64,000 nt of DNA from Selaginella moellendorffii (Eukaryota; Plantae; Lycopodiophyta), in contig NW_003314275.1 in assembly GCF_000143415.4 (NCBI RefSeq), positions 1,493,955 to 1,557,954 on the forward strand, in the 5' to 3' direction. The notes beneath the pieces were generated by a model that searched no databases, was not told where the DNA came from, and saw only the letters and a program-made list of their open reading frames with translations. Positions 6,501 to 34,595 of this stretch are shown piece after piece (position 1 is the stretch's first letter; every line of letters starts with the position of its first letter). The position numbers and the translations under genes are program-made.

Positions 6501-7627
6501 TTGTTGGGCATAGCTCCATTGTGCTTAGCTTTTGGATTGATGCAGATATGCTCTTCATTAACTTTGGCATTATGAAGTTTGGTTTATGGATGTGTTGAGG
6601 AAGATGTTGTGGGTTGTACCATGATTTCTTCTTTAGTATTGAAATTAATTCATGCGAAACTTGTGATCATTATTAGGCAAGACTTGGCTATAAGCTTCTT
6701 CAAGCTTTTGGTTCTCTGAGTTTTTATGCTCATTGTTCCATTTGTTAGAAGTTGTTGGGGAAGGCATTTTGGTTTGTTAACTTCGATGTTGAAGTTAGTA
6801 TTTGCATTTAGTAATCATTGGTGATGATTGATTATCATCTAAGATAGTTAATTGTCCTTATCAAAAGGTTTTGCTTGATTATTGTTGGTATAAAATGATT
6901 TGCCATTCTTCAGGATGGTAGATTCTTTTTTCGATAATGATTATGCATCTTTTCATTGATGGGATGATTAATGTTCTTTCATGATAGTTAGTTGTTCTCT
7001 TTGATGGCTTTTGGCTTTTTGCAATACTACATGTTCTTTGTGGTTTGCTCTGGATTGGTTCCTTGGTTTGAAACATCAATAGGATATTGCTGACACTTGC
7101 TTAAGTAACTTGAGTTCCTTTGTATTGTGACTGGGATTTATTCAAATTGGCTAGTGCAATAATTAGTATAACGCTATGTTTGTTGGTCTTGCCGTATTCA
7201 TTCTATTCTGTTGATTATTGCTGGAGTTAGTTCTGATAGGTTGGGATGTTATTTCCTTCGGGTGATACATTCGCGAGCATTATACTTGTCAGTCAATGAT
7301 ACTTTGTGTTCTTTGAGTTATCTTTAGTAAGTTGTTTGGCATACTATATACCATCTTCAGTAGTTAAGTTTTATCATTAAGTTTCCTTGATGATATCTTT
7401 ACTATTGAATTTTGTTGGATAGTGATTCCTATGTTTACCAATAATGATGATCTTGGTGGTTCATATACTTTACTACTGGTTTATCGGATGATAACTTGTT
7501 TTGGAATACTTTTGTGTTTTAAGCTACGATTTCATCACTAACAATTAAGTCTCTAAGATATCATTGTCTATAACTTTGAAGGTGATGTGACCAATTGATA
7601 GTAACTACCCCATGACTAGAGATTTCA

Positions 7628-8775
7628 TGTAAGCCACAAATTTTTCCTTTCCAATTTGCCAGCTTACCTCGTCTATCCGTCCAACACTGCCTTGGCTTTT
7701 GCTAAGTTCCCTTGCCAAGGTTCTCGCCTATGGTACCAGCTCCTACTTGGTTTCAGCTACTCACTGCACGAGCAACGGAGAGTTAGCCATCCTTCCACGG
7801 ATTCCCAAATCACTCCCAATCCCCCTCCCCGGGTTAGACTGGACTTAAGGTTCGGCTACACTCCCCGCAAGCGCAAGCAGCCAAGCACACCAAGCTTCCA
7901 GATTCCTAACATCCCTTGGTACCACAAGACTTGATCATGGGACCCTCTAAATCCCAAGTCTTGAGTGCAACACTTGCTTCGGGACGCCGGGGCGAAACAC
8001 CGTGGCCTAACGGCCCGGTATGGGTACCCCTCGCCCCCCACATCCATCCCGAAGGAAGGCCCAAGCCCCTAGGAAGGGCGAGGACCAATGAGCCGCATGG
8101 TACTCAAGTGGGGCACCACTCCACATGAGCCGGGAGCACCGCAATCGGTTTCCCTTTCGGGAGTGGGAGCTGCTCTTGAGCACTTCCTTGGATGGCCCCT
8201 CCGGCACCAGCCAAGTCCATGCTCACTCCCACCCAAGGCCCCTTGGTCCCAGTCCCAACCTCAAGTCGGTTTGGAAGCCCAACTGGAGAGTCCCTTCAAA
8301 ACTAGTTCCTGGACCTCACTATCCCTACTATACTTTTGGAACCCCCCGCAGCCCCCCCCCCCTGGGGGACGCACGCTTTGGGCTTTCACCCCTTGACCCG
8401 TATTAGTATTTGGACTTAGTCTCTGGCTCGATCTCGGATCCGATTTCGGATCCGACTTCGGATTCGGTCTCGGACTCGATCGCGGACTCGATCTCGGACC
8501 CGATCTCAGGCCCGACCTCGGACTCGACTTCGGACTCGGTCTCGGACCCAATTTCGGATCTCGGACTCCGTCTTGAACTCGGTCTCGAACTCGGACTCGA
8601 ACTCGGTCCCCGAGTCGGTCTTGGACTCGATTCCGGACTCTATCTCGAACTCGGTCCTAGAGTCGGTCTTGGACTCGATCTTTGACTTGGTCCCATCCGA
8701 TGAACTCTTTGTCATTTTGGTCATGCTTTCGGGGTTCCCTTAGCCTACGACACCTCGGCGAGTTGGTTCCTTACA
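7628..8775 (-). repeat. 3' LTR of element A
   Basis: Repeat of 14012-15159 at offset 6384; the translated ORF tracks of the two copies are identical. Confidence 0.97.
8410..8682. repeat. CG-rich degenerate 6/12-mer tandem array in U3 of the A LTR (second copy 14794-15066)
   Basis: Repeated tcggac / ctcgaa / tcggtc units. Confidence 0.85.
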
Positions 8776-8787
8776 ACTCCACCACCC
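8776..8787 (-). other. Polypurine-tract position (GGGTGGTGGAGT) of element A
   Basis: Abuts the 3' LTR; an identical 12-mer abuts the B 3' LTR at 20161-20172. Confidence 0.8.
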
Positions 8788-8789
8788 AT

Positions 8790-9095
8790 AGAAGAAGTTC
8801 GATGCCCACATCGAACGTCTCTTTTTTATCCTACGACTTGTTGACCATGTCTCCGGGGGCATCCCCCCACTTAGCGGTGTGCCTAAGTTAGCCTCCCCGG
8901 CCAAGAGCTCATGACAACGGAATATAGGTGTCCCTATACTCCACCCCTCACCACGCCCTAGTATGGGGTCGGGACTTGAACCCAGCCTTGCTTTACTAGG
9001 GGGTTGGGACTCAAACCCAACCTCCGTAGAATACGTCTACGGATTCGACATCCCCGCAGGGAGTCGGGCGTAGCTCCCTACGCCTGGTCGACCTA
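8790..9095 (-). other. Conserved multi-hairpin cis-element in the 3' non-coding region of element A
   Basis: About nine consecutive stems, with a homologue showing compensatory changes in element B (21355-21785 and 20181-20202). Confidence 0.7.
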
Positions 9096-9179
9096 GCTAA
9101 CCCATGCTAATTAGCTCACCTTTGGCGCGCCTTCGGGTCCCAACATATGCCACTTGCTCAACTTTGCAAATTGATATTT

Positions 9180-12100
9180 TTAATTGAACTTTGCATAAGT
9201 ACATAGAGTTCTGCCTTGCAGAAATTCCTCCACTAGATCTCGCGCGTTCGCTAGGTTCTCCTCCGGTTCCCATGTTGCTTCGCAGTGTGGAAATCCTTTC
9301 CACTTCACATGGAACTCTCTCACCTCGCGTCCTTGTCGCTTGCTCTTGCGCGCATTGAGGATGGCCTCGACTTCGTATTCCTCTTCCCCTTGGATAACCT
9401 CAGGTAAAGGTCTTACTTGGTCTTTGCGAAGCGGATCCTCAAAGTACGGCTTGAGTAAGTTCACATGGAACACTGGGTGCATCTTCCCCATCTCTCGAGG
9501 AAGTCGGAGTCGGTAAGCCACTTTACCGATTCGTGCCTCAATCTCGTAAGGCCCCGCGAACCTGCTTAAGGAACTCAAGATCAATTCATTTACAGGAATA
9601 CATGCATTTTTACCTTTGGGTCAACTTTCGGCTGATCCCACTTGGTAGCCTAAGGTTCTTGGTGTTCAGCCACACCTTCTCCCCAGCTTGGAACTCTACG
9701 TCCCGGCGCTTTAGGTTCGCGTACTTGGTTTGCCTTTGTTGAGCCCGTTCCAAGGAATCCCTCACTAGATTCCAAATGTTGAGTCTTTCCGCCGTGAATG
9801 CCTCCACTGCGGGTAACTCTCCATGATACTCGGCCACGCCGAGTTCCACAGGACCTTCAATAGCTCGCCCATTGATGACTTCCCATGGACTCACCCCGAT
9901 GCTCGAATGTGGTGAGTTGTTATAACACATTTCCGCAAGTCCCAAATGACTTACCCAGTCGGTCTGGTCTCCCGAGACATAGCATCGCAAATAATCCTCC
10001 AGCTGCCTATTCACCCTTTCCGTTTGTCCGTCTGTCAAGAAGTGTTAGTGCCATCAATCTTGACTCAATACCCATTACCTGTCTGTGGGTGATAGGCCGT
10101 GCTGAATTTCAACTTGGTGCGATACTGTTCTAGGAGTGTCCTCCAGAACCTACTGGTGAAGATCTTATCTCGATCTGAGATAATCTCTTCCGGCCTTCCC
10201 CGCACTCGAACCACTTGTTCGAAGAACAGCTTCGCCACACCTTCCGCATCCACATCCGTTGTGGTGGGTATGAAATGTGCCATCTTTGAAAATCGGTCCA
10301 CCACCACGAATATCGCATCGAACCCCTCGCTTGGGGGTAGTCCCGTGATGAAGTCCATCGTGAGACATTTCCACGGACGATCTGGAATGGGGATGCTTTG
10401 CAACAAGCCCCCACTAGCCTTCGTCACGGCTTTAACCTGCTGACATGTTGGACATGTCTTTACATAGTCTTGGACGTCCTTAGCCATATCTGGCCAGTGA
10501 TACTTCCTTTTGAGTAAGCCCATCGTCTTGGGCACTCCGCCGTGTCCCGCGAGAGGTCCGTCATGACACTCTTCCAAGGCTACCTTCCTTAGTTCCCCTT
10601 CTGGAACATACACCCTCGTTTGCTTGTAATATATGAGTCCGTTGCGTTCCGCATAGCCCGTTTTCTCTTCCGTTGGCAGCTCACCTCTCTGGTGAGCTTC
10701 CCGCGCCTCCAGATTCCTCAGCAACACTTCTTGTGCTAGACCATCACTCTCGTATGCGGTCCGCACATCGTCCCAAAAGGTTGCTGTCGCGCTAGATATC
10801 GCCAACTTCAAACTCGCTTTTCGACTGAGCGCATCTGCCACGATGTTGCTCTTCCCAGGCTTGTACAGGATCTCGCAATCAAACTCGGCCAAAGCATTGG
10901 CCCACCGACCTTGTTTTCCCCTTAGGTCGGGCTGTGACAAGAAGTGTTTCGTTGCCACATTGTCCGTGTAAACCTTGAAGTGTCTCCCAAGGTAGTGTCG
11001 CCACTCCTTGAGCGCCTTGACCACCGCAAACAATTCCTTCTCGTGGGCAGGCCACTTCCGTTGAGCCTTGTCCAGCTTCTTCGAGAAGAACGCTATTGGA
11101 TGGTTGTCTTGCTTCAAAACTGCGCCCAACGCAAAGTCCGAAGCATCCGTGTCTACCTCAAAGTCTTTACCAAAGTCTGGTAAGGCCAACACCGGAGCCT
11201 TCCTCAACTTCCCTTTGAGGTGGACGAATGCTGCCTCGCATTCCGCTGTCCATACCATCTTCCCTTTTCCTGTTTGGTCCGTTAAGGGCAGGGCTACTCT
11301 CGAATAGTGTCTGATAAACTTTCGATAGTAGTTGCATAGCCCCAGGAACGCCCTCAACTCATGTACATTCGATGGTCGTTCCCATTCCTGGATCGCTTGG
11401 ACCTTCTCCGGGTCCACCTTGAGCCCGTCTTGGCCCACCACATGCCCGAGAAACTTTACCTCTTGTCGAGCAAAGTCACATTTGCTCTCTTTAGCATACA
11501 GTTTGTGTTCCCTTAGTTTCTCAAACACCTTCGCCAAGTGTTCGGCATGCTCCTCTAGCGTCTCGCTATAGATCAGGATGTCGTCAATATAGACGACCAC
11601 GAAGCGATCCAGATAGGGTACAAAGATGTGGTTCATCAACGCCGAAAACGTTGCCGGCGCATTGCACAGCCCAAAGGGCATCACCAAAAACTCAAAGCTC
11701 CCATACCTCGTTCGACAGGTTGTCTTCTCGACATCTTCCTCAGCTACCCTGATCTGGTAGTATCCTGACCTTAGGTCAATCCTCGAGAAGTATTTTGCTT
11801 TTCCCAACCTATCGAACAGGTCCTCGATCCTTGGCAAAGGGTACTTGTTCTTCTTGGTATACTTGTTGAGCAACCGGTAGTCTATGCACATGCGCATAGA
11901 TCCATCTTTCTTTTTCACAAATAGCACCGGCGCCCCATACGGCGACTTGCTCAACCTAACATACCCTTTGTCCACCAACTCCTCTAGTTGGCTCTTGAGC
12001 TCCTTGAGTTCTTTTTCGTTCAATCGATAGGGTGGACGAACCACCGCCTCAGCACCCTCGACCAGCTCAATCTTATGTTCTATCGGTCGTGCGGGGGGCA

Positions 12101-13952
12101 ACCCCGCCGGTAGCTCCTCCGGCATGGTATCCTGGAATTGGTCCAACACTCGCTGGATCACTAAAGGCACTTCTTCCGTTCTTGTCTTTTTGTCACTCTT
12201 CACCGAGAGTAAGCACAAAAAGGCTGCCTTAGTTCCTTTAGTGAGTTGTCCTCTCGTGGACACCAGGTTCAAGCATGACTCTTTGGCCTTGCTTTGCCCT
12301 ACCTTTAGATCCTGGGCCTCCACCCTAGATCTTCTTCCTTGGGCATTCGCCAATACCACAAGGTTCCTACCTTGTCCATGCAGGGCTACCACGAACCGAT
12401 TAAACCAATCCATTCCAAAGATCACGTCAAATCCCGCCATATCCAAGACGGTGAAATCCATGTCCACTTTCCATGTCCCCACTTCGACTCTCGCTTGTCG
12501 AAGTACCTCATCGGTGCTTTGGCTACCCTGAACAAACTCTATAGTCCTTGGTTCGCCTAGCCGCTGCACCGTTAGTCCGGCTTGCCGGACTATGTCTGCA
12601 GCCACAAAATTATCCGAAGCACCCGTGTCAATAAGGATCTTAACAAAGCTACCTCCGAGCTTCCCTCGGAGGGCTAGTAGATGTCGCGAACGACTCTCTA
12701 CCAAAGTTGCTCGTGTAATGAGTAACTTTGAGTTAGGGACTGGATCACATACCTCAGTTTGGACTTCACCCGACTTGATGGCCATATTGGCTCTGGCCTT
12801 CTTCGGGTAGGGACATTCCCTCGAGAAGTGTCCCGCTTCGCCGCAGTTGTAGCATACGTTGTTTCCCACGCTGCTATACGACTTGACCTTCTTATCCGTG
12901 GGTTTGTCCTTTTTCGCTTGACTCCCCCACGTACTCGCTCGCTGGCCACCGGATTTGCCTTTCCGGAACCCCGAGGACTCATTCTTAGAGAAACTCCTTT
13001 TGAATTTCCCCTTGCTATACGTTCCCCTTGGTTTGGCCCCTTTGCTAAATGTGGATCCCGACCCCGTCGTGTTCCCCTTTCGCAGGTTATCGTTGAAATG
13101 CACCTTGATGGCCGCATCCAACGCTTCCTTGTAGTTGGTCGGGTTCCACCTCATCACCTCGCCGCGAGCCCAGGTTTGCAAACCTGATATGAAGGCATGG
13201 AACGCATCCATATCCCCCATGTCCGTGACAAGTATCCTCTTTGCCATGAACCCATTCACATATTCCTGGATGGTTCCTGTCTGTTTCAGCCTACTCAGTT
13301 CATCCCTCAGATGCAGAGTGGCATTCGGAGGAACATATGTTGCGCGGATCCTCGCCTTCATCATGTCCCAAGTGACCACCGGTCCTTCGTTGGCCTCCGT
13401 TGTTCTCCACCAAGACTTGGCATTATCTGCCAAGTATGGTTTTGCACATGGGACCTTCTCCGAGCTTGGTAACCGCAACGCTCGGAAGTAGTCCTCCATA
13501 TCGTAAAACCAATCCTCCACCACCTTATAGTCATTCACTCCCTTGAAGACCGGTGGGGGCTTTGGTTTGTACTTGGGAACTGCCTGAGGGACTGATTCCA
13601 CTTCGGTCTGTTCGACCTTGTCTGGTTTTGCCTCAGTCCCGACCGAAAGATCCGCACCTTCTGCGCTGCCAGCATCCGCAGTCTTTTTCTTTTTCTTCCG
13701 CCTCTCGTCACGCTTTAGCTTGCGTACGAGAGTTTCCAGCAGGGCATTGGTCTGTGCCAACTGTCCTTCTAGCACGTCCAATCGAGCCTTGGACGACCGA
13801 ACCTCGCCACCGGACTCCTGTTTGGAAGTTTCCTCACTGGAGTCCTCCTCATGCAAGGATTCCTCATCCATAGCCTCTTGTTCAACCGGAGGCTCCAGCT
13901 CCGGCGGAGGTTCCGTCTCCGCCTGGGTTCGCTTACGCCCTGCCCTTGCCAT
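9180..13952 (-). CDS. gag-pol: Gag-Pol polyprotein (Gag, CCHC knuckle, protease, RT, RNase H, integrase, chromodomain); 3 exons 13952-10079, 10031-9614, 9561-9180 giving 1557 aa
   Basis: [14 protein letters not shown]; LIDTGA; YIDD; TDASD..GAVL; HHCC and D,D-35-E (MDFI, SDRD, QTER); GPY/F motif; YEVEAIL...VKWKGF...TWEPEENL. The three ORF pieces join in frame by removing two GT-AG segments. Confidence 0.92.
9562..9613 (-). other. Predicted spliceosomal intron 2 (52 bp) before the GPY/F motif
   Basis: caaag|GTAAAA...taagcAG|gttc, 17/52 G+C. Removal restores KLTQRFAGPY; contains an in-frame TAA. Confidence 0.85.
10032..10078 (-). other. Predicted spliceosomal intron 1 (47 bp) in the integrase core
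   Basis: cagacag|GTAATG...CACTAAC...ttgacAG|acgga. Removal restores the conserved HPQTDGQTER; contains an in-frame TGA. Confidence 0.85.
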
Positions 13953-13996
13953 CTCCCAGCAATCCGCCTCTATCCTTCGCTAGAACTGAGATAAAG

Positions 13997-14008
13997 GCTC
14001 CGATACCA
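13997..14008 (-). other. Primer-binding site (tRNA-iMet type, TGGTATCGGAGC) of element A
   Basis: 3 nt from the LTR; one A>G difference from canonical TGGTATCAGAGC. Confidence 0.9.
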
Positions 14009-14011
14009 AAT

Positions 14012-15159
14012 TGTAAGCCACAAATTTTTCCTTTCCAATTTGCCAGCTTACCTCGTCTATCCGTCCAACACTGCCTTGGCTTTTGCTAAGTTCCCTTGCC
14101 AAGGTTCTCGCCTATGGTACCAGCTCCTACTTGGTTTCAGCTACTCACTGCACGAGCAACGGAGAGTTAGCCATCCTTCCACGGATTCCCAAATCACTCC
14201 CAATCCCCCTCCCCGGGTTAGACTGGACTTAAGGTTCGGCTACACTCCCCGCAAGCGCAAGCAGCCAAGCACACCAAGCTTCCAGATTCCTAACATCCCT
14301 TGGTACCACAAGACTTGATCATGGGACCCTCTAAATCCCAAGTCTTGAGTGCAACACTTGCTTCGGGACGCCGGGGCGAAACACCGTGGCCTAACGGCCC
14401 GGTATGGGTACCCCTCGCCCCCCACATCCATCCCGAAGGAAGGCCCAAGCCCCTAGGAAGGGCGAGGACCAATGAGCCGCATGGTACTCAAGTGGGGCAC
14501 CACTCCACATGAGCCGGGAGCACCGCAATCGGTTTCCCTTTCGGGAGTGGGAGCTGCTCTTGAGCACTTCCTTGGATGGCCCCTCCGGCACCAGCCAAGT
14601 CCATGCTCACTCCCACCCAAGGCCCCTTGGTCCCAGTCCCAACCTCAAGTCGGTTTGGAAGCCCAACTGGAGAGTCCCTTCAAAACTAGTTCCTGGACCT
14701 CACTATCCCTACTATACTTTTGGAACCCCCCGCAGCCCCCCCCCCCTGGGGGACGCACGCTTTGGGCTTTCACCCCTTGACCCGTATTAGTATTTGGACT
14801 TAGTCTCTGGCTCGATCTCGGATCCGATTTCGGATCCGACTTCGGATTCGGTCTCGGACTCGATCGCGGACTCGATCTCGGACCCGATCTCAGGCCCGAC
14901 CTCGGACTCGACTTCGGACTCGGTCTCGGACCCAATTTCGGATCTCGGACTCCGTCTTGAACTCGGTCTCGAACTCGGACTCGAACTCGGTCCCCGAGTC
15001 GGTCTTGGACTCGATTCCGGACTCTATCTCGAACTCGGTCCTAGAGTCGGTCTTGGACTCGATCTTTGACTTGGTCCCATCCGATGAACTCTTTGTCATT
15101 TTGGTCATGCTTTCGGGGTTCCCTTAGCCTACGACACCTCGGCGAGTTGGTTCCTTACA
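14012..15159 (-). repeat. 5' LTR of element A
   Basis: Repeat of 7628-8775, adjacent to the PBS. Confidence 0.97.
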
Positions 15160-15667
15160 TTTCACCATGCACACGAAGTGCTAAAGCCAATCTGCCTATA
15201 CTGGCCCAAACTCAAAAATCAATAGATGGACAATAGTCTCTCTGTCGATGTTCCTTATTCCGTTAAAGGGGTGTGACCGTGTAAACAACTTTAACTACCT
15301 GTTTACAGTAGTCTATCTAAACCTTACCGACGGGTTTGGTTTCTTTGCTCAGGAGGGTTGGGGCCTCTGGCTTCTCTCTCTATGTCCTTGTGGGCAGGGC
15401 ATATCACACTTTTGTAAGCTGGGTGACACCCAGAGCAGCAAGGGTGGCTCACTCTATTGGTCATTTCCTTGTCGGCGACGGTCGGAAGGTGTCTAAGCTG
15501 GTAGCGCATCCACGTTAGATAAAGAGGTTGCCTCCCAACTCATTTAAGTTGGTGCATTTCTCACATAGTGTGAATACCGTGAACTTTTTCTGGAGTTGTT
15601 TCCTTGGCAGTATTCTAGACTCGAGTATGCATCGACGAGGACATTGATCTTCTCTAGGGGGGGAGAG

Positions 15668-16794: not shown

Positions 16795-17530
16795 CTAGCA
16801 CAATAAGGGCTACCAAAGGGATCCAACTGTACCAACCTCCTACTGTCATGGCAGTAAGGAAAGAGTGTCTATAAAGACTGGCCGACAAATATCTTTCGAT
16901 ACCCAAAATCACATTTGCAACACTTTCCCCCCCTTAGGGAAGATCGACGTCCTCGTTGATGCATACCTGAGTCTAGCAAACCATCAAGGAAACAATTCCG
17001 AAAGTTAACAGAAAGCACACTATGTGGGAAACACACCGACTTAAATGAGTTATAGAACAACTTCTCCTCTACGTCCAAAGACATTAAGACTCAAACACCC
17101 TAGGACCGTCGCCGACAAAGAAATGACTGACGGAGTTAGCCACCCTTGTTGCTCCAAGTACCACTTGGCTTACAAAGGAATGATACATCCTTGCCCGTAG
17201 GGACATAGGGAAAGGGCCAAAGGCCCAACTTCCCCTAAGCAAGAAATCAACCTCGTCAGGAAGATTTAGACAACTATTATAAATTGGCAAATTAAGTTGT
17301 TTACACAACCACGCCCCTTTTCAAAAATGAGTCATCGAGAGAGAGGTGGGGACTTGTGATCAGTCTATAATAGTTATCCCCATGGTTATGGATTGGACCC
17401 ATGCACCGAAGTGCCGAAGTCAGCCTACCAAAACTGACTCAAGTACTAACGAACGAGAGAAACAACACTTGGATTTATAGAAATATATTACTTTATTAAT
17501 TTGCAAGATTTATTACAAGATTTACAAAAG

Positions 17531-17893
17531 TTAATCTTTATTACAATTCTCATACTCCATGACAAGCTCACAAGCATGTGTAAGATTCCTAAAACGTTCC
17601 CAAGTTGATTCACAAGTCGGGTAACCCTTCCACTTAACTAAATATTCCTTTGCATGAGCCCGTCTTTGAAACAGGGAATCCAAGATAGTTTCAACTTCAT
17701 ATTCTAGTTCACCGTCCATAATGTCTAGTGGCAGATGAATCTCCCCTTGATGTGCAACATCCATAGTGTAAGGAGCCAATAGATTGGCATGAAATACATT
17801 ATAAACATTGGACATCTCAATAGGCAAGTCCAACCGATAGGATATATCACCAATACGTTTTAACACCCGATAGGGTCCAACATATCTTGGCAA
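17531..17893 (-). pseudogene. Integrase C-terminus plus chromodomain remnant of element D
   Basis: PRYVGPY...YRLDLP...VFHANLL...YEVETIL...YLVKWKGYP...STWE; upstream pol is deleted. Confidence 0.88.
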
Positions 17894-17983
17894 GAGCTTC
17901 TAAGACAAAGAACCCTTTATCGACGTGATAAAGATCAGCATCGTCAGGATGTATCCCATCAAGTGGGAGATCAAGTGTGACTA

Positions 17984-18296
17984 TCACCAATTATAATGTT
18001 CAGCACCATAAATTCCTTTTATGTATTTGTTGAAGAAGTCCATACCAAACACTATTTGAAAATCTGAACTTTGAAACTCGTGCAACTGGGGGCGGCTGCA
18101 GAACTTCATCGTCCTCAGAACTTGAAGAGGAGTCCAGTTGCTTAGGCTTAGCTGGTTTAGTTGCTTCAGCTTCTTTCTTCCTCTTCTTGTTCTCCTTCTT
18201 GAATTTGTGAATCTCCCTTTGCAAACTCTTGATCTCAACTTCCTGAGCTGTACACTGCAATGCTGTAGCATTTGGCTCTTCTTCTTCTGACTCGGC
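17984..18296 (-). pseudogene. Gag N-terminus fused by deletion to a protease-end remnant (element D)
   Basis: Basic stretch KKENKKRKKE resembles A Gag. FQIVFGMDFFNKY matches [14 protein letters not shown]. Interrupted by B and continues at 26091-26340. Confidence 0.65.
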
Positions 18297-20160
18297 TGTA
18301 AGCGACTAAATTTTTCATTCTACTTTAGTCACTTAACCACACCTCTGACCACTTGGAGGAGTCTTATTCACAACCTCCATAAGTCCAATCCAGGACTTGG
18401 GACTTGCTAGCCCCGAGAATGGCATCCATGCCACTCAACATTTGCACTTGGTCCAAGTGCTCCACGTGTCCAATCCCATGACCGACACTCAAAGGTACCA
18501 TCGACATAGCAGCCCGTTAAGCTAAGGCCATGCCCAATCACCTTTGCCACACTAGTAGTCCAATACCACTTGCATCACCGTCTTGGCTCTCCAAGACTAG
18601 GCAAACCATCCGTGAGTGGTCATCTCAGATCCACTCCTTAGCATCCTTAAGATGCCCACCGACAAGGGGAATAGCCTTCCCCAATATCCCTCTGTTAGTC
18701 CCCACTAAGTCCCTTTCTGCCTCTGGCCGTGTTTGCCAACACTGCCACTGGATCGAGACCCACAGGCCCGACCACTAAGTCCCACGGTCCTCTGGGACTT
18801 CCTCACCACACGACTGTGTCCTTGGTCACTACCCCAGAGGACTGCTCCTCTTCCTTTCCACAGTCTGGGCCTTTGGGACAACATTTCGGAACACCGTGGC
18901 CTTACGCGAGCCACCTAGGTACTCTCCTCGCCTTCTGCCCTTGGGTGCTCTAGCCATGGGCTTAGAGCGGGTTCCGTTGAGCCACACCAGGTATCCAAGT
19001 AGGTAGTGCCACCCACACTTGGACTGGGAGCATCGGCCAGTCGATCTCCCGGGGGAACTAGAGCCGGCTCTTGAACACTTCACCAAGCTACCCCGCTTGT
19101 CGGTCTGTGTTCACTCTAGTCTTGGACTTCCCAGTGGGCAGCTCATCACCCAACACTGGGTCCGGCCTTCCTGGGCCAAACTGGCCTTTCCTGGCCAAAT
19201 TGGCTCCATTGCAGTCCTCCCCCCACTATACTTTTGGAGCTCACCAAACCCCTCAGGGTCTGGGAGACGAACGCTTTGGGCTTTCACCCTCTCAGGCTCC
19301 GGACTTGGACTTGGACTCGGACTCGGACTCGGACTCGGACTTGGACTCGGACTCGGACTCGGGCTCGGGCTCGGTCTCGGCCTCGGCCTCGGTCTCGGTC
19401 TCGGTCCCGATCTCGGTCTCGGTCTCGGTCTCGGTCTCGATCTCGGTCCCGGTCTCGGTCTCGACTTCGGACTCCATCTCGGACTCCATCTCGGACTCCA
19501 TCTCGGACTCCATCACGGACTCCATCTCGGGTCCATCTCGGGTCCATCTCGGACTCCATCTCGGACTCTATCTCGGGTCCATCTCGGACTCCATTTCGGG
19601 TCCATCTCGGGTCCACCTCAGACTCCATCTCGGACTCCATCTCGGACTCCATCTCGGGTCCATCTCGGACTCCACTTCGGACTCCAACTCGGGTCCATCT
19701 CGGGTCCACCTCGGACTCCATCTTGGACTCCATCTCGGGTCCATCTCGGACTCCACTTCGGACTCCAACTCGGGTCCATCTCGGACTCCACTTCGGACTC
19801 CATTTCGGGTCCACCTCGGACTCCATCTCGGACTCCATCTCGGACTCCATCTCGGGTCCATCTCGGACTCCACTTCGGACTCCATCTCGGGTCCACCTTG
19901 GACTCCACTTCGGGGTCCTTCTCGGACTCTTCCACGTGTCATGTGTTGGTCCTTTTGGGTCCCTTTTTTGGAGCCTCACTTATTGCTCTATTTGTGCTTG
20001 TTCCTCGAGCACTTTGTTGGGAGTTCCACTCCCGCTCTCGACCTTTCAAGGCGAAGCTTTTAGTCCAAACGTGTTACGCTTGTTTGGCTTTTCGCTTCGG
20101 CCACTACCACGTGGCACCCTTCCAGCACCACTTTGGGGCCTAGGGATTTTGTGTCTCACA
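18297..20160 (-). repeat. 3' LTR of element B (1864 bp)
   Basis: tgtaagcgac...gtgtctcaca, repeat of 24245-26090. Confidence 0.93.
19296..19930. repeat. Tandem array in the B LTR: 6-mers (tcggac, tcggtc) then 12-mers (tccatctcggac); second copy 25244-25860
   Basis: Directly visible periodicity; it generates the long low-complexity ORFs. Confidence 0.92.
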
Positions 20161-23100
20161 ACTCCACCACCCATAGACGAAGTTCGATGTCCTCATCGAA
20201 CGGTGAACCATTTTATAAAGTAACACCCGCATGTGTTACCATTTCCATCCTTGGCGCGTAGCCAATATTTGTCAATGGTGTGACCTTGAAGGCTCACCAT
20301 GCCTTCTCCATATTCGTCAATGGTTGGACATTGAAGGCTCACCATGCCTTTTGCATATCCTCTAAGGAGGGTAGTCTCCCCAACTTAGAGACTGATTGGA
20401 CCACATATAGTGGTTCTCTCCTTTTATTGGTTTAGTTCTCGCTAAACCTTTTAGAGACCCTTCTCTAAGTCAATCCCACTACTCCTTCTCGAGTAGTCTC
20501 AATTTCCATCGATATAACCTTTGCACTTTGGAACTTTGAATTTTGACTTTTTGGAGTCAATTTCCTAGGTGTCTCCGACACCTTGCCTTGCACCTTTTGT
20601 GCAACTCCACTTCCCATCCTAGGAAGTTCTCTACTCGAGGGCACCATCATCCTCTCTTCTATTTCGTGCCAAAGTTCCAGTTATCATACTTTGTGCTAGG
20701 GCTGTTCATGGCCCTATCATTTGGCTACCTTACCGCTCCCTCCCTTGGAGCTTCCACTTTCGCCAAATCGGAGCATTTCGGAATCCCTCCTTGGAAACAC
20801 ACTTCCTTTCCCGCAACTTGTTAGCGTCCAACACATTAGTGTTCCTCGCCTAACTTTGTCACTTGGATTCCTTCCAAGGGATTCCACGGCCCTATCTTGG
20901 CCACTCATCTTTTGCTCCTATCCGTTGATTGTTGCACCAAGCACCATCGAATCTCTACCTCCCTCCTTGAGGTATTGTTTCGGTTCCATAGCAAAGACTC
21001 TTCTTTGCCAAGTCCGGAGGATGTTCACCCTTAGTACGTCTCTTTAGCATCTTCTGCTATGGGCTCTATCCACAGCCCAACTTCGTGACCCTCCCATGGG
21101 TCTTTTATAGAAACTACTTTCCTCGGACTCACTATGCCATCGCATGGACATAGTTTATTTTCCTTAGGTGCTCTTCCCACTTGGTCATCACGACCAAGCC
21201 ACACCACCTTAAACAGTTCAATTTCAACATTTTGAACCAGGAATTTCATTCCTTAGCCAACCAAGGACCTTGTCCTTATCTGGCCATAAGATCACCTAGT
21301 GATCTCACCTTGGCACCTTAACAGAGTTGCCAAGAGGTACTTGGTCTTCTAGACCTCCAAGTTGTTGACTATAACCCCGGGGGCATCCCCCACACTTGGC
21401 GGTGCACCCAAGCTAGCCCTTACGGCCAAGGGTTCATAGCAACTGAGATTAGGTGTCCCCATCTCACTCACCACGACCTTGGTGCCACTTGCACCAAAGT
21501 GTTCAAGTTAGATATGCTGAGCTTTCACACTAAGCAATCTAACTGTGCATCACGACTCCGAGGCATCCCTCGCTTGGCGGTGTGCCCAAACCAGTCTCCC
21601 CACTGAGAGTCCATGACCACCGAAATATGAGTGTCCTCATATTCCAAACCATCACCACGCCCTAGTGATTTGGGACTCGAACCCAAGCACTAGAGGGTCG
21701 GGACTCGAACCCAACCTCCGTATATGCATCTACGGACGGCATCACACAAGATGCCTGGCGTGACTCCCCACGCCGGTGCACCAACTTATTTTTAAAGTGC
21801 GCTACAGATCACAGCTTAGGAACCTAGTTCCTCCACACTGCCAAGTCCTCTCACTTGACATGTCTGTGATCATGCATGGACTCCTCCATGCTCGGCCCCA
21901 TGGCCCACCCTTTTTGAAGTTATCACCTTCAACTAGGGTATTTGTTCCCCCGACGTGCCAATCTCGCTTGGCAAGTCCTCCGACCACTGTAACATGGTTC
22001 CTGCATAAGCGTGAAAGTCCTTGACCATCGACTTTCGTTCAAAGCCCTCTCTTTGAACACTCGGGAACTACTTCCCTAACCTTGATAGCCTTGCCTCATG
22101 GCAAGCTTCAAGACCACGCTTCTGCTGCGCCACTCTGATTTCGCGCGTTCCATGAACCATTTACACTTGGCCTTTCTAGGTACTAAGCTACCTAGAATCG
22201 TCTTTGGGAACCTTGAAGGAACTCTGTCCCTTAGCTTGCTAAGGCCTCCCTTTTTGCAAGCTTTCCAATTGCCACATAGTCTAACATGGACAATTCCATA
22301 TTTTAGACTCTCCATGGCATCACGGTTGCTAGCGGCAACACCCTCGAGCCCCCACTTGATTCTCCACTCCCAGCTGGTATAACCAACCTTGGTTATGCCC
22401 TTCGATTTCTATGGTTCAGTTCCATCCCAATACTACTTGCCTTTTGGCCCCATATGTTTCCTTTGGTTATTCTCCTCCAGACCTTTCTATCATGCCTTAG
22501 CAAGTATTCTTAGGGATGTACCTACCCAATAGCCCAGGGAGTGGTTCCTCAATCCGGGTATGCTCACCTTATAATCCCACACACTGGGATTACATTGTTG
22601 CTTATGGGCCTTTCCATGCCCATCACTAGCCTTGCCAAAATTCCATTTTTGGCTTTGTCCAACTCGGGTAGACAGTCCTCTCTTGTCTCCGCAACTTTGG
22701 ACATTTGGATAGCACCTTCTATCCATCATTCGCTAGGGACTTAGTCCCTTGGGCTTTATCTATTGCCCTCGCGACATCAAACACCACCTTCTGGTGTTCT
22801 AGAGTGTTCGGGTGTCCCAATGATGGCTTTCTTGACAATGAGTATTTCCTTTTATGACATTGACTTACTATATTGCAACACAAGCAACTTATCCCCCGTA
22901 AGGGTATATCCAACTTCCCTATGCTATTAAGAAGTCTTGGGTAGCTACCTTCTACCCGTTTAACCAGTTATTTTGCACCTCCTGCTTAGTTGCCTCATAG
23001 TTGTCAAGTCCTACAACTCATTGCTTGGTGCTTTCACACCTCCATCATTATCTGAGTCACCACACTCCAACTGCATGCTCTGCAGCTTAGGCTATGCCAT

Positions 23101-24244
23101 TCCCATTTCCATTGGGATTCCTTTGGCAAGGGGTTCTCATGAACCCACCAACATAGCCTCAAGGTATCACACCTTGGCACATTTGGTGTCTCCACACCAT
23201 CGGCTTCACGAGCTTACCTCTATGACACTTCTTCTTCATGTCTAAGTCTCTGCCAAGACCAATACCGCTCTTTCTCATGCCAACCATTTGTTAGCACCGC
23301 ACCATAGAGGTCACACACAACTTTGGGTAAAAGTTGTTTTCTTTTTGGGAACACCTTTCCCACGACTTTAGCATGGCACATTTTGCCATCGATGAGATAC
23401 CCTCTATTCTCATCCTTGGATCCTATGATCCCCCCCCCCCATCCTTTGTGGGGTACAACACACCTCAGTCCAAATGCTTCCATCAGTCCTTTTAGGACCA
23501 TTCCTTGACTCTACTTGAGTCATCCAACAGTTTTGGACTTGGTTAATCCACAGACCTGTAAGGTCCTCTTTGTGAGGCACTAGCTCACTGGAATACACTT
23601 CTTGCATTCCTGTCCTACTCAAAAGGACTATTTTCACAAGTGTTACTCCGACACTTGATTTTGTTCTCTGGGGGCAACCTTTGCCCCTTATGACTACTTG
23701 TCCATGTGATGAGAATACCAACTCATCCACTTAATACACCCCCAACTCCTTGGGTTGTTCCAGCATTTATTAAAGGTAGCCCCGGCTACCATTTCAAGGA
23801 CTTGAGTCCTCTTCCGTATTTGACCTCCCACGGTCATTGCCTCTGGTCTCACATTCATGAGCACCAACCTCAACTATATGAGGATAATCTTGTGACTCCT
23901 TTATTGTTTTGGAGTCTACATCTTTCCCGTGATCCCAACTATAGTTGTTTATCACAACTACGTTAGCCCGTTTGCTGCGTCAAACGTTCATTTGGATCAC
24001 ATCCTCAGCTCTCTGAGGAGACCTTATACTGTTCCCAAGACCCCAAAGTCGTTCCATTATTAGCCCTTTTCTATCCACCACGTTGTGCCCAAGTTCACGC
24101 ATGAACTTGAGTGGAAAGCCATGTCCTCTCGACATGCTACTCTCCAGGATAGGCCCACTCCTAGGACCTTCCGATGCCAACATCAATGGTGATATACTTG
24201 AGCACCAATAAAAGTCGGACTAAGGAACAGCTCCGATACCAAGT

Positions 24245-26090
24245 TGTAAGCGACTAAATTTTCCATTCTACTTTAGTCACTTAACCACACCTCTGACCAC
24301 TTGGAGGAGTCTTATTCACAACCTCCATAAGTCCAATCCAGGACTTGGGACTTGCTAGCCCCGAGAATGGCATCCATGCCACTCAACATTTGCACTTGGT
24401 CCAAGTGCTCCACGTGTCCAATCCCATGACCGACACTCAAAGGTACCACCGACATAGCAGCCCGTTACGCTAAGGCCATGCCCAATCACCTTTGCCACAC
24501 TGGTAGTCCAATACCACTTGCATCACCGTCTTGGCTCTCCAAGACTAGGCAAACCATCCGTGAGTGGTCATCTCAGATCCACTCCTTAGCATCCTTAGGA
24601 TGCCCACCGACAAGGGGAATAGCCTTCCCCAATATCCCTCTGTCAGTCCCCATTAAGTCCCTTTCTGCCCCTGGCCGTGTTTGCCAACACTGCCACTAGA
24701 TCGAGACCCACAGGCCCGACCACTAAGTCCCACGGTCCTCTGGGACTTCCTCACCACACGACTGTGTCCTTGGTCACTACCCCAGAGGACTGCTCCTCTT
24801 CCTTTCCACAGTCTGGGCCTTTGGGACAACATTTCGGAACACCGTGGCCTTATGCGAGCCACCTGGGTACTCTCCTCGCCTTCTGCCCTTGGGTGCTCTA
24901 GCCATGGGCTTAGAGCGGGTTCCGTTGAGCCACACCAGGTATCCAAGTAGGTAGTGCCACCCACACTTGGACTGGGAGCATCGGCCAGTCGATCTCCCGG
25001 GGGAATTAGAGCCGGCTCTTGAACACTTCACCAAGCTACCCCGCTTGTCGGTCTGTGTTCACTCTAGTCTTGGACTTCCCAGTGGGCAGCTCATCACCCA
25101 ACACTGGGTCTAGCCTTCCTGGGCCAAACTGGCCTTTCCTGGCCAAACTGGCTCCACTGCAGTCCTCCCCCCACTATACTTTTGGAGCTCACCAAACCCC
25201 CCAGGGTCTGGGAGACGAACGCTTTGGGCTTTCACCCTCTCAGGCTCCGGACTCGGACTCGGACTCGGACTCGGACTTGGACTCGGACTCGGACTCAGAC
25301 TCGGATTCGGGCTCGGGCTCGGTCTCGGCCTCGGCCTCGGTCTCGGTCTCGGTCCCGATCCCGGTCTCGGTCTCGGTCTCGGTCTCGGTCCCGGTCTCGG
25401 TCTCGACTTCGGACTCCATCTCGGACTCCATCTCGGACTCCATCCCGGACTCCATCTCGGGTCCATCTCGGGTCCATCTCGGACTCCATCTCGGACTCTA
25501 TCTCGGGTCCATCTCGGACTCCATTTCGGGTCCATCTCGGGTCCACCTCGGACTCCATCTCGGACTCCATCTCGGACTCCATCTCGGGTCCATCTCGGAC
25601 TCCACTTCAGACTCCAACTCGGGTCCATCTCGGGTCCACCTCGGACTCCATCTTGGACTCCATCTCGGGTCCATCTCGGACTCCACTTCGGACTCCAACT
25701 CGGGTCCATCTCGGACTCCACTTCGGACTCCATTTCGGGTCCACCTCGGACTCCATCTCGGACTCCATCTCGGACTCCATCTCAGGTCCATCTCGGACTC
25801 CACTTCGGACTCCATCTCGGGTCCACCTCGGACTCCACTTCGGGGTCCTTCTCGGACTCTTCCACGTGTCATGTGTTGGTCCTTTTGGGTCCCTTTTTTG
25901 GAGCCTCACTTATTGCTCTCTTTGTGCTTGTTCCTCGAGCACTTTGTTGGGAGTTCCACTCCCGCTCTCAACCTTTCAAGGCAGAGCTTTTATTCCAAAC
26001 GTGTTACGCTCGTTTGGCTTTTCGCTTCGGCCACTACCACGTGGCACCCTTCCAGCACCACTTTGGGGCCTAGGGATTTTGTGTCTCACA
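24245..26090 (-). repeat. 5' LTR of element B (1846 bp)
   Basis: Repeat of 18297-20160, 18 bp shorter in the tandem array. Confidence 0.93.
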
Positions 26091-26382
26091 TTGGCCTCAG
26101 CCTTTTCCGTAGCATCTCTAGTAGGAGTTTCCTCCTCTCGATTCACCCATCTAAAGGTTTCAACGTCATCAGCATGGTTCCTTTTCACCATCCCGCTAGC
26201 TGCATGCATGTCTCTATCAGTAACCGAACATGCATCCAACGTTCTTACCGAATGGTTCAATCCCACTAATCCTACACAGGTCACTTCGGATCTATTAGAA
26301 GAGTCTCTACGTATGCAACTTGAGTAAAAAAATCCGACAAAAGTTGGATAGGAATCGCTAAGACAATTCCTCTGATACCAGA

Positions 26383-27285
26383 TGTAACGCACCTGAATTT
26401 GGAGCTGAACTCCAAGTCCATTGCGTTACGAAATGAAGGTCTGGTAGCATTAGCTCCCCGTATCCAACACCTGCACGTAAAATAGTGTCAAACGGAGTTT
26501 GGCACAATTTTGGCATATCAGTGGCCTAACGCAAGAAGGAGGGTACCCCACCGGCTAGAGCAACGTGGAGCTTGGGCTTAGACCCAAGCCAGACACAGAA
26601 CAAGGAACAACACAGCCCAACGGGAGCCAAACTAATGCCTCAAGTGGTCGGACATGCACTATCTCTGCTATACATTTGGGACCCCCCATAACACCCCACC
26701 CCCCCTTGAGGAACACATGCTTCGGGCTTTCACCCCAAGCCGCTCTTAGTACCAGGAGTTAGTCTCTAGGACAAGCTCAAAACTTACTAAATATGGAATG
26801 TCCCTAGATTACAAATTTAGACACGAGACGAACACCATTGTGTTCAAGCCAATCTCTACATTTCGTAGATATGCCAAATGAGCGAATCTAGACACTTTCC
26901 ATAAATAGCATTTAAGATCGAAATAAGACTAACACAAAGGGTATGATAGCGAGGGTATTTAACAAATATAGTAAGCTATCATCTAGCGATATTGAGGGAC
27001 TAGTCTCAATACGCAAGGGTTTTTGTCATTAGTCAGTGTAAAACATAACGAGACGGGAACTCCTTACCAAGCTAAGTATGCTTAGCTAATAACACATAGG
27101 AATTCCGTCCTTATGTTCATCTGGTCTAAGTACACTCAAAATACTCAGTTAACTCCACTAGCACAAAAGGGGCTACCAAAGGGATCCAACTGTATTGACC
27201 TCCTGCCGTTATGGAAGTAAGAAAAGAGTGTCCATAAGGACTGGCCGACAAGTATCTTTCAATACCCGAAGTCACATTCGCGATA
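26383..27285 (-). repeat. 5' LTR of element D
   Basis: tgtaacgcac...gtcacattcgcgata, colinear with 1712-2508 plus 16800-16922. Confidence 0.85.
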
Positions 27286-29183
27286 ATATGAAAGCTTAGT
27301 TTGTGATTTCACCCTAATTAGTCTTTTGGATAAATTTGAAAACTTACTAAATATAGAATTTCATTAGATTGCAAATTAGAATGCAAGAACAATACTATGG
27401 TGTTTAGAACACTCTTTACATTTCATAAACATGCCTCACTAATACATATTATAAATAGCACATATGGGGTATGGTAGCAAGAGTGTTTAGCAAACATAGT
27501 AATCTATCATGTAGTAATATTAGGGGATTATACTCAATATATAAAAATTATTATCACTAGCCAATGCAAGACATAATAAAATAGGAATTTTTTACCAGAC
27601 TAAATATGTTTACTTAATAGTATATAAGAATTCCATCCATATACTAGTTTGGTCTAAATACACTCAAAATGTCTAATTAACTTCATCAGTACAAGAAGGG
27701 CGAACAAAGGGAATCAACTATACTAAACTCCTACTATCATAGTAGTAAAAAGAGAATGTCTGAAAGGACAAGCTAACAAATATATTTTAATACTTTTGAT
27801 ATCAAAGGTGGTATCTTGTTCCTAAAGTTACATTTGTAACAAACGCTCACTTGAGAAGAGTATATTCTTGATGACTATATCGAGAATTTAGTAATTATAA
27901 AGAGTGAGTTAAAAAATTTATATAACATTGCAACCAACTCAAAAACCATGAAGAAAACATAGGGAAAGTGCATGTAATATATTAAAATGATATGATAAAA
28001 CTAAATTAATTGGTGTTTTCTTTGCTTTTAGAGTTTATTTCATAATGCATTTACTACTAATCATTGAAAAAAGATTTAGCTTCTATTCATCCAACCTACA
28101 ACATTATATGGTAATGTGTTAATTTCAAATAGAGTCATCATGGTTAAATCACATATCGAAGCTTTTACAACTATAGAGATAAGTAGCAAGTTTCACATGC
28201 TTAGAAATTTTGTCTACAACAAACTAGAGTCTAGGTTTGTCAAATGTTAGACAAACAAGTAATTCTTATAGTATTTTTGGGGTCTATGCCACAGTAATGA
28301 GCATAGAAAATACACTTTATTGAGCAATTTGTATTTGCTTGATAATTTTTAAACAACAATCAAACAAAAGATTCCAAACATGAAGGCAACTAAAACAAAA
28401 ACTTGATTTATATATATTTAGAATTCTAAATAGGAGAAATCTTAATCACTATGTACAAGAAAATTCAAGTTTTTCTCTCGAAAACATACAATTAGTAAGA
28501 TTTATCTTTTGGATTTCTAGCTCTTAAAGTAGCATAAGTTTATATCTAGGTTTTGCAGGTACTTTTGTCCAAATCCCCATTCATCACCTCAAATAGATAT
28601 TGAAATCGGATGGCCAATCTTAACCCCTAAGGATATAAACTAACTTTAGAGAGTTCTCCTAAAGTGGGAGCATTGCCTGATAATTAAGGACACTGTTTCT
28701 ATTAGAGGGTATTTCATTTATGTATTTTAGCAATTAAAGCTGAAGATGCCATTTTGCAAATGAGCATATTGAGTGGGGAATTCTTGAGCAAGGAGATCTC
28801 AAAAGGACATTGACACATATTATTCACTTTAAAGTTATGGTTTTGTGGTGCTATTCTCAACAAAGAAGAAGATTATGACTGTACAACCATTGTGTTGGGA
28901 TGATTAGCAAGAGTATTTAGTCAAAAAAACTTCGTATGGGTCAGTCACAAGTGGATGATTAGGACAATCTTCTCTAAAGTTTTAAATGTTAATATAAAAC
29001 TGACTTTGTAAAACCACTATATAAAACCAATAAAAATACCCATTATGTGAAACCCATAAAGGAAAACCAAATTCTAAAACCATATATAAAACATAATGAT
29101 GAAGCATATGAAAGCATCTCACCTGTTTGAGCATTCTTATTCCCATTTGACACACACACACACACACATGGCATAATCATGAT

Positions 29184-29780: not shown

Positions 29781-30445
29781 TATATAAGGTGGGGTTCAGG
29801 GTTTAGGGTCACTATGTCAACTATCACTGGACGAATTGTGGTGTGCGGCAGACCAGGTCTTGTAGCATCGAGTTCTGTGCACAGTGCTACAGAGGGAAGC
29901 TTGTTAAGACTAGGTTTTATTAAAGATTTAATCTCAGATTGGTTCTTTTTTCAAAGAAACAACCTACGAGCTTTTTGTGGGAGAGCACAAGCCAATGCTA
30001 ACGAGAGAGCTGATAAAAAGACTGGAGAAGTGAAGATGAGCGTGGTGGACTACACCCTTGGACTTCTCTATGTCCTTGCGACAATATCTTTTGAGGGCGC
30101 ATATCACCTTTCACTTGCCACTTTGATCATTACCTTGTATTGGTTTTTTGTTCTTGATAGAGATGCCTTGCAGATTGGTATGGCTGCTACTGCAGCATAT
30201 CAATATATCTGCCATGGGACGTGTGCTAGTGAAGCAAATCAAGGTATCTGCTGCGCACATTGCATTGATTATGACCAAAAAATGAACTTGTTGACTTTTT
30301 TTTAATTCTATTTGAAACATACTTTTTTATATTTTTAATTTATTTTTTCCCAAGAAAGCCGTGAATTGCATCGACCACACCCTACCGATTGTAAGATCCA
30401 ATAGAACATGAAATGCTCCGAGACCAATACGCGGATCTCTCCTTC

Positions 30446-30531
30446 CCTTGTCCAAGATGATCAGTTCTGTTGCTGAAGTGTTGCAAGAGCATCATCCTCT
30501 TCAGCAACAGAACTGATCATCTTGGACAAGG
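30446..30531. repeat. Perfect 33-bp inverted repeat with 20-nt loop (duplicate at 39945-40030)
   Basis: ccttgtccaagatgatcagttctgttgctgaag ... cttcagcaacagaactgatcatcttggacaagg. Confidence 0.93.
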
Positions 30532-30857
30532 AAATGGAATCTTTTTGTTTGGCTCGCCCGGTGCTCAAGATGAATAAGCCCAGCCATGAGCTGCTCGTGG
30601 AGATGGTTGCAAAGCACTCAATGACAAGCTCAATGCTTGGAGCGGCGTCTGTTCGAGTTCGACTTCTCAGAGGGCTGCTTAAGTTATTTACTCATTGTGA
30701 AGCTTACAACTCCCAAGGTCTACTTGTGGGCTACATCGATAGATATTGAATCTTGTTTGATCCGGCATTTTACCGTAAATCAAAACGACTGTGGGAGAGT
30801 TTGGCGTTCACAAATTTAACCACTTTAATGATCGTATCAATGTATGCCAATTGACAG

Positions 30858-31465
30858 TTGTACTAAAGAATATTCACGAAATCTCCATTTTATTTTCTCT
30901 TTTGTGGTGGCTGTGGTCCTTGCTTCACCCTTAGAAACACCGACACTCTCCCTGGATCCTCCTCGCCTCCTCTCCTCCGACAAGGATGATTTGTAAGAAC
31001 TTCTCAATCTGTAACTCTCGCCTCGATCTCGATTGGACGATGGCTTGTTCACCCCACTATCCCTGCTGCTATCTCTCCGCTCCGAATCTCTTTCCTTGTA
31101 ATCGTACTCATCATAAAACCATCTCCAATTGGATGAGGGGCCCCTCCATAAGTTTCAATTCCGTCAGGCATCCATGGCATTTGCTAGCCTGAATAGTCTA
31201 GTTTACCAAGTCAGTAACTGGAGCATCGAAATTGAGGAAAAGTACCTAGGCATCCTTACCTCCATCAAAACAACTTTCTCCCAGGTCTGTGATTGATCCC
31301 TCGCTGCCGATAGAACAGGAGAGGCTGCTTTTGAGGCAACACTGACTCCATATCTGTGAACGATGTATTAGATTACTCATTGCATCACACCATGGAAGGA
31401 GGTCGTCGACAGGCACATGTGTCGCTCCACAAACGCATTTGCATTTAGAAATGATCTCGCCGCTA
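30858..31465 (-). pseudogene. Deletion-riddled copy of the 3' half of the DWNN gene (also 40342-40978 and 34960-35295)
   Basis: Colinear short blocks matching 46100-47605, including intron sequence. Confidence 0.85.
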
Positions 31466-32149: not shown

Positions 32150-32310
32150 CAGGTGGGAAACACAAAGGTCATAATCTGCATACCACAGCAAGCGGCCGCT
32201 TATTTGCGTGAAGTCGAAGAGCGGGCTAGGACGGGCGCAGTCACTGTTGGTCGCAACCTCTATGGGATCCTTGCAGTGTCAGACCCGCTCAAACGAGAAG
32301 CCGCCATTCG
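32150..32310 (+). pseudogene. Fragment of a P1B copper ATPase (RAN1/HMA-like); duplicate at 41676-41836
   Basis: IPQQAAAYLREVEERARTG...YGILAVSDPLKREAA resembles the N/P-domain junction of RAN1/HMA5. Confidence 0.7.
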
Positions 32311-34270: not shown

Positions 34271-34595
34271 CTTTGCAAGCGTTTACACCAAAATCATTCA
34301 TATTTGACTTCTCATAACCGGGTTCAGGGTTTAGGGTCACTATGTCAGCTCTCACAGGACAAATTGTGGTGTGCGGACCAAGTCTTGTAGCATCAAGTTC
34401 TGTACACAGTGCTACAAGACTCAATGTTTCTAGGAAGAACATTGGAGCGAAGCTTGTTGCAAGGTAAGACTAGGTCTTATTAAAGATTTGATCTCAGATT
34501 GGTTCTTTTTTCCAAGAAACAACCGACGAGCTTTTTGTGGGAGAGCTCAAGCTAAAGCTAATGACAGAGATGATAAAAAGACCAGAGAAGTGAAG

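Follow-up and report, generated by a model that had tools for sequence, protein, structure and literature searches.

Spliced introns within the integrase coding region of an SM1-Galahad chromovirus copy from Selaginella moellendorffii and a likely leader intron across its primer-binding site

Introduction

The loss of introns is a textbook signature of retrotransposition. According to a review from 2025 plant LTR elements are generally free of introns, the exceptions being Ogre and EVADE (PMC12786077). In Ogre, a legume element of the Ty3/Tat type, an intron is spliced from a subset of the transcripts in order to translate RT-RH-INT (PMC6317226, PMC4408406), and the Ty1/copia elements EVD/COPIA93 and BARE1 employ an alternative intron over the protease, the removal of which leads to a stop and to a Gag-only mRNA (PMC5580714).

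The family SM1-Galahad of Selaginella moellendorffii was described by Novikov et al. 2012 (PMC3350952) as comprising hundreds of copies that are 95% alike, among which no intact copy was found. Its consensus of approximately 7.5 kb carries an ORF of 3885 bp (1295 aa) in addition to two short ORFs (316 and 309 bp), with the chromodomain encoded by the second of these, and the family is further characterised by LTRs of 1076/1146 bp, a poly-G tract of 11-25 G and a 13-bp Met primer-binding site (PBS). The sister family SM2-Galahad, likewise present in hundreds of copies, is reported there to possess a single ORF of 1577 aa. Whereas SM1-Galahad is treated in PMC3350952 as a family with a broken ORF, the breaks in the copy analysed here are spliced introns, its LTRs are identical and its target site duplication (TSD) is perfect. 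We consider it probable that we are dealing with a young SM1-Galahad copy which is likely to be intact, that its integrase inserts are spliced, and that splicing is likely to separate the translated from the copied RNA.

Results and Discussion

Structure and classification of the element

All positions refer to the window, i.e. the whole stretch of 64,000 nt that was analysed. The element occupies positions 7628-15159 on the minus strand (7532 nt) and is flanked on both sides by the TSD TTTCA (7623-7627 and 15160-15164). Its 3' LTR (7628-8775) and its 5' LTR (14012-15159), both on the minus strand, are 100% identical over 1148 nt, so that the initial annotation was right in describing the LTRs as identical and the TSD as perfect. 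The 5' LTR has TG..CA ends, a tract of 11 G and a TATA-like site near position 14716. A PBS of the tRNA-Met type (13 nt, 13996-14008, minus strand), as is also described for SM1-Galahad, and a polypurine tract (PPT; approximate bounds 8776-8789, minus strand) were identified from the sequence. No tRNA genes were found in the 64-kb window. The copy at 7628-15159 is young and likely to be intact.

The coding region is divided into three exons on the minus strand. Exon 1 (10079-13952) encodes Gag with its zinc knuckle, PR, RT, RNase H as well as the N-terminus and most of the core of the integrase, according to Pfam and to a match with the Ty3 integrase. Exon 2 (9614-10031) covers the remainder of the integrase core, with GQTER, and the linker, as judged from the alignment with the Ty3 integrase, and exon 3 (9180-9561, stop codon at 9180-9182) encodes the SH3/GPY-F region and the chromodomain (Pfam PF24626, E 2.7e-16; PF00385, E 1.7e-16). 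The best match of the integrase among solved structures is that of Ty3 (7Q5B), to which exon 1 aligns over residues 1067-1268 (E 7.7e-35) and exon 2 over residues 1264-1389 (E 4.2e-6), the latter resuming at the motif where the former ends. Without splicing, the ORF at 13952-10068 encodes the claimed 1295 aa; exact removal of the two inserts joins exons of 3874, 418 and 382 nt into the single ORF of 1557 codons that had been predicted.

The LTRs with TG..CA ends, the TSD, the PBS, the PPT and the domain order Gag-PR-RT-RH-INT, as derived from the sequence and from Pfam, place the element among the Ty3/Gypsy elements. The chromodomain (PF00385) at the C-terminus of the integrase, which is joined to the core in an X15 contig (see below), identifies it as a chromovirus. 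Furthermore, the tRNA-Met PBS and the 5-bp TSD agree with the traits given for the Galadriel/Galahad clade (tRNA-Met PBS, 5/4-bp TSD) in the clade table of the PMC6317226 supplement, and the placement in this clade follows PMC3350952. Membership in Ogre was rejected, since the element has PR and RT in a single ORF and carries a chromodomain, whereas Ogre belongs to the Tat lineage with an additional RNase H.

With a length of 7532 nt, LTRs of 1148 nt, a run of 11 G and ORFs of 3885, 318 and 309 nt, the copy matches SM1-Galahad, an assignment that is based on host, lengths and features rather than on sequence comparison and in which the second ORF measures 318 instead of 316 nt. The same broken ORF layout is found in the consensus that was published for the hundreds of copies; it is therefore the majority state within the family, and the inserts are not lesions specific to this copy. 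A known family has thus been misread as broken, its introns going unrecognised in PMC3350952; the terms 'intron' and 'splic' do not occur in the text and the supplement of that source.

Sequence properties of the integrase inserts

The two inserts have the positions and sizes proposed in the initial annotation, namely 47 nt at 10032-10078 (intron 1) and 52 nt at 9562-9613 (intron 2), both on the minus strand and both of the form GT..AG. Equally as proposed, both are preceded by an exonic AG and are AT-richer than their flanks, with GC contents of 0.40 (intron 1) and 0.33 (intron 2) versus 0.51-0.52. Intron 1 carries a CTAAC 17 nt before its end, contains the stop codon that terminates the ORF when unspliced and interrupts the HPQT-x-GQTER motif of the integrase core. 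A few codons past this break lies the glutamate that completes the catalytic DDE triad.

Both introns resemble U2-type introns in their GT..AG ends and in their host-like size and composition. Their size had originally been compared with host introns in the window, for example with a piece of 55 nt at 43346-43400; this piece is a candidate intron of the form GT..AG, and the median intron length of 59 bp in S. moellendorffii (PMC3729371, Table 3) provides the better basis for the comparison.

Point frameshifts and ribosomal frameshifting were rejected as explanations of the broken frame, the motifs of the relatives being contiguous and the inserts measuring 47 and 52 nt. Regarding the origin of the introns, direct repeats of 5 nt and 4 nt were detected at the intron ends, and a test for introners revealed no match of either intron longer than 16 nt within the window or in 80 related loci. 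In these sequences, the end repeats of 4-5 nt were the only feature speaking in favour of an origin via local tandem duplication or an introner.

Splicing of the integrase introns

Evidence at the RNA level was obtained from four of the 24 listed runs (X15, X17, X23 and X24), which were aligned over positions 8780-14010. X15 and X17 are sets of contigs whose RNA status is guessed, X23 consists of raw RNA reads, and approximately 12% of each of the runs X23 and X24 was sampled.

One X15 contig of 1083 nt, which probably represents RNA, skips exactly the 47 and the 52 nt (both CT..AC), its joints being flanked by at least 255 nt on each side. Being 97-98% identical to the window, it derives from another copy or allele. 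One of the 11 X23 reads skips the 47 nt as well, with 46 nt on its short side, and the only X24 read shows no joint. Exact removal was therefore detected in two of the four runs for intron 1 (one raw read and one contig) and in one of the four for intron 2, the joint of the latter coming from one contig of a guessed-RNA run. The joints make use of exactly the predicted pairs despite the presence of 12 (site 1) and 16 (site 2) frame-restoring GT..AG pairs of 30-150 nt.

An X17 contig covering 9609-10217 is free of gaps and thus retains intron 1. It shares 11 of the 12 variants listed for X15 in this region, which means that nearly the same set of variants occurs with and without intron 1. Another X17 contig enters the 3' end of intron 2 by 13 nt according to depth arithmetic, by which the X15 depth bins around all four introns (i.e. 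including the two described further below) could also be reproduced.

The split sequences across 10079/10031 and 9614/9561, by which the initial annotation had suggested checking its proposal, are hence present in the X15 contig for both junctions and in the X23 read for the first, and both inserts behave as the spliceosomal introns they had been taken for. Introns 1 and 2 are spliced out of the RNA of the element, and retained forms exist too.

Selection and comparison with related elements

Read in the spliced frames, 11 of the 13 variants listed for exons 2 and 3 are synonymous, against a share of 0.34 that would be expected if transitions were random (p 2.6e-4). The corresponding numbers are eight of ten for exon 2 alone and 33 of 40 for all listed variants, these being the best-supported 40 of 176, a choice which may favour old, selected changes and thereby bias the synonymous share upward. 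Exons 2 and 3 are under selection in their spliced frames.

A protein search revealed no close family member among the best 120 of 5505 matches, whose identity did not exceed 51%; the nearest proteins belong to plant elements that are 49-51% identical and mostly comprise approximately 1400-1650 aa. A search for shorter proteins gave identities of at most 60% among the best 120 of 994 matches, the search with the Gag protein resulted in a single match of 31% identity, and an exact look-up returned no entry for the 1295-aa ORF. HPQT-type motifs run unbroken in the proteins of the relatives.

Site 1 was matched in 79 of 80 related metagenome loci (76 contiguous, two with frameshifts of 1-2 nt, one truncated) and site 2 in 62 of the 80 (54 contiguous, five with alignment gaps of 1-2 residues, three matched only partially and on the opposite strand). 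No intron-sized insert was found at either site across the 80 loci, which makes it most likely that the integrase introns were gained within this lineage. The uninterrupted site 2 of element D, a remnant in the same window, had been put forward for comparison; with an identity to exon 3 of no more than 44%, this remnant represents another family and is uninformative about the copies of the present one.

Gag intron and leader intron

Apart from the integrase introns, the contigs point to two further introns. One X17 contig skips 157 nt at 12596-12752 (minus strand, GTATGT..TGCAG) with 30 nt on its short side. The X15 contigs stop at 12753 and resume at 12597 with no depth in between, and these positions are the exact points at which the spliced and unspliced paths diverge. 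The skip removes the DTG codons of the protease and leaves 400 Gag codons followed by one codon and a stop. From this single contig the 157-nt splice tentatively appears to give a Gag-only frame, copia-like in nature, in a Ty3 element. Among the related loci, 11 have a protease motif, and a strong donor upstream was detected in none of these.

X15 contig 6 aligns only as far as 13987, past which its loose end agrees in register with positions 14054-14083, where 28 of 30 letters are the same as judged by eye. The implied skip of 66 nt at 13986-14051 (minus strand, GAG/GTAAGC..CTCAG) has its joint in exact register and spans the terminal 40 nt of this LTR, i.e. the end of U5 in the 5' LTR, together with the entire PBS. 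This joint is the loose end of one contig at a site that lies past the end (14010) of the aligned stretch, and depth arithmetic gives no X15 depth beyond 13987. It is likely that a leader intron of 66 nt removes the U5 end and the PBS.

The Gag and the leader joint are represented by one contig each from guessed-RNA runs, with exact boundaries and zero raw reads, and the X15 contig with the leader joint is not the one that carries the joints of the integrase introns. Strong donor motifs on the sense strand are only mildly enriched (six versus 2.6 expected; 48 of 1000 shuffles). Five PBS-like sites were identified in the related loci; most are without a comparable donor-acceptor layout, and they may be parts of other elements. 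From the X15 contig a 5' leader of several hundred nt with eight upstream ATGs can be deduced (14629-13953, minus strand).

Neighbouring features of the window

A second LTR element is located at 18297-26090 (minus strand). It has LTRs of approximately 1.85 kb that are 97% alike and a TSD matching in four of five positions, and is devoid of a long internal ORF. Its LTR repeat region is approximately 71% and a part of its 3' internal region approximately 72% alike to the Galahad copy, and it is likely to be a non-autonomous (LARD-like) relative. On the basis of its donor-PBS-acceptor layout, a candidate intron of 71 nt spanning the PBS was predicted at 24220-24290. Element D (17310-18296 and 26091-26390, minus strand) is an internally deleted chromovirus remnant that is split by this second element and retains a Gag-like start, a protease end and an SH3-chromodomain part, the latter being the portion compared with exon 3 above; a YAG is found 12 nt past its PBS core.

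Degenerate tandem arrays of 12 nt are present in the LTRs of the Galahad copy and the second element (8408-8703, 14792-15087, 19278-19975 and 25224-25859). The window furthermore contains a local segmental duplication (approximately 95% over 3.5 kb; 30396-35073 / 39892-46203 and 27286-28628 / 36320-37676) with F-box genes on the duplicated segments (33627-34469 and 44312-45442), an intronless gene for a TspO/MBR translocator (54926-55561, plus strand), whose protein falls into one cluster with a Selaginella moellendorffii record and so identified the host, and an assembly gap of 983 N (58630-59612) inside a very AT-rich stretch.

Proposed separation of translated and copied RNA

The initial annotation had suggested that the unspliced RNA serves as the copied genome and the spliced RNA as the integrase mRNA, a proposal for which the leader intron would supply a concrete mechanism. 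The unspliced full-length RNA would keep U5 and the PBS, allowing tRNA-Met to prime on this template, from which daughter copies would inherit every intron; its ORF ends before the last catalytic residue of the integrase. An RNA that has lost the leader intron and both integrase introns while keeping the Gag intron would encode the 1557-aa Gag-Pol and would be unprimable. If the 157-nt intron is removed in addition, the RNA would encode the 401-aa Gag alone and may supply an excess of Gag, as is the case in copia elements. Since the likely leader intron would delete the PBS, spliced RNAs would be unprimable and only unspliced RNA would be copied, and new copies would consequently keep their introns. 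We infer that these splices are coupled within single molecules, that the unspliced RNA is packaged and that the protein products are made.

We would give an even chance to the broader proposal that an LTR retrotransposon has here turned into a gene with several introns, that an intron spanning the PBS sterilises every fully spliced RNA, that introns are then no longer purged and may accumulate even near the active site of the integrase, and that this constitutes a general licence for intron gain which may be common to other Selaginella chromoviruses.

Among the alternatives, the one that fares best, although we regard it as unlikely, assumes that the introns are real and family-wide but kept in another way: a promoter of its own, its cap state or a nuclear packaging route would determine which RNA is copied, and the splice removing the PBS would be a minor side event. 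Such a scenario resembles BARE, in which an uncapped, non-polyadenylated pool is packaged and capped pools are translated (PMC3735527), and the leader joint was observed in one contig only. However, this joint has a strong donor and a strong acceptor that closely bracket the PBS, the X15 depth ends at 13987, and the related element at 18297-26090 has a candidate layout of the same kind (GAG/GT..PBS..TAG).

It is considerably less probable that SM1-Galahad is partly parasitic, having gained its introns once, rarely making its own integrase and being mobilised by the integrase of SM2-Galahad. The intact, intronless sister family, for which a single ORF is described (PMC3350952), could indeed supply integrase in trans, and the RNA runs of 2026 indicate very low expression. 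On the other hand, the predominance of synonymous changes in exons 2 and 3, when these are read in the spliced frames, and the precise splicing of both integrase introns in one contig argue against this scenario, as do the LTR sizes, which differ between SM1-Galahad (approximately 1146 bp) and SM2-Galahad (919 bp) according to PMC3350952.

Slightly less probable again is a scenario in which intronless master copies do the work and the intron-bearing copies form a side branch, so that the X15 contig might stem from an intronless DNA copy. Reporter introns inserted into LTR elements do not normally survive transposition (PMC12786077), and the RNA nature of X15 is guessed. Nevertheless, the multi-copy consensus itself is broken in its layout and intact copies were not found (PMC3350952), which is indirect evidence against intronless genomic copies, a true RNA read shows the skip of intron 1, and X17 carries nearly the same variants together with this intron. 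Moreover, the PBS is missing from the X15 sequence, although normal priming would be expected to restore it in a new copy. Copy-specific lesions or an assembly artefact, for which one might point to the N run elsewhere in the assembly, are largely refuted and scarcely credible in view of the exact GT..AG joints in independent runs, the retained form in X17 and the same layout in the published consensus.

Significance and comparison with known systems

Two integrase introns are thus maintained in a family of hundreds of copies, which is likely to require the splicing of both. The likely intron spanning the PBS offers a simple candidate answer to two questions, namely how an LTR element apportions its RNA to translation and to copying, and by what means introns may persist in a retroelement. 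A family published as broken and without an intact copy can be re-read as intact and recently active, and pipelines based on ORFs will score such families as dead in genomes with small introns.

In the literature covered, which does not extend to Repbase Reports and most subscription journals, neither introns within the integrase of an LTR element nor an LTR-retrotransposon intron that removes the PBS were found. The available parts of PMC2864245, PMC12130899, PMC9940879 and PMC2923131 contain nothing closer, and the same applies to PMC7175516, where only a cryptic Tf2 intron is described. Spliced transcripts contained in maize LTRs have canonical introns with splice sites within the LTRs, as is likely in the present case, but these introns are long (mean 1303 bp) and belong to non-coding LTR RNAs (preprint PMC13192763); the terms 'PBS', 'primer binding' and 'integrase' do not occur in the text of this preprint. 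Penelope-like elements likewise keep spliceosomal introns after retrotransposition, yet they possess neither LTR nor PBS nor DDE integrase and are copied by a different mechanism (PMC8557442).

While expression based on splicing is known, a Ty3 element with mini-introns in its integrase and a likely PBS-removing intron looks undescribed. The initial interpretation requires one qualification, namely that a need for splicing to produce integrase has precedents in Ogre and the foamy viruses; it is the mini-introns within the integrase coding sequence that look undescribed. In foamy viruses the major donor lies upstream of the PBS. As is proposed here for the SM1-Galahad copy, these viruses translate Pol from a spliced message that differs from their unspliced genomic RNA, but they have one long intron from the leader into gag, a Pol that is not fused to Gag and an intron-free integrase (PMC7828637).

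The alternative protease intron of EVD/COPIA93 and BARE1 resembles the 157-nt intron in generating a Gag-only mRNA; conserved splicing of this type is not reported for Arabidopsis Ty3/Gypsy elements in PMC5580714, whereas the present Ty3 element appears to have it. Copia-type elements and the model proposed here also have in common separate RNA pools for translation and copying (PMC3735527), whereas EVD and BARE1 produce Gag-Pol from unspliced RNA and the integrase of the present element needs further splicing. Ogre, for which the available parts of PMC6317226 and PMC4408406 describe no intron removing the PBS, shares with this element the splicing of a transcript subset for translation of the integrase; its one intron of approximately 274 bp lies between the GAG-PROT and RT ORFs, whereas the SM1-Galahad copy carries two introns of approximately 50 nt inside the integrase itself.
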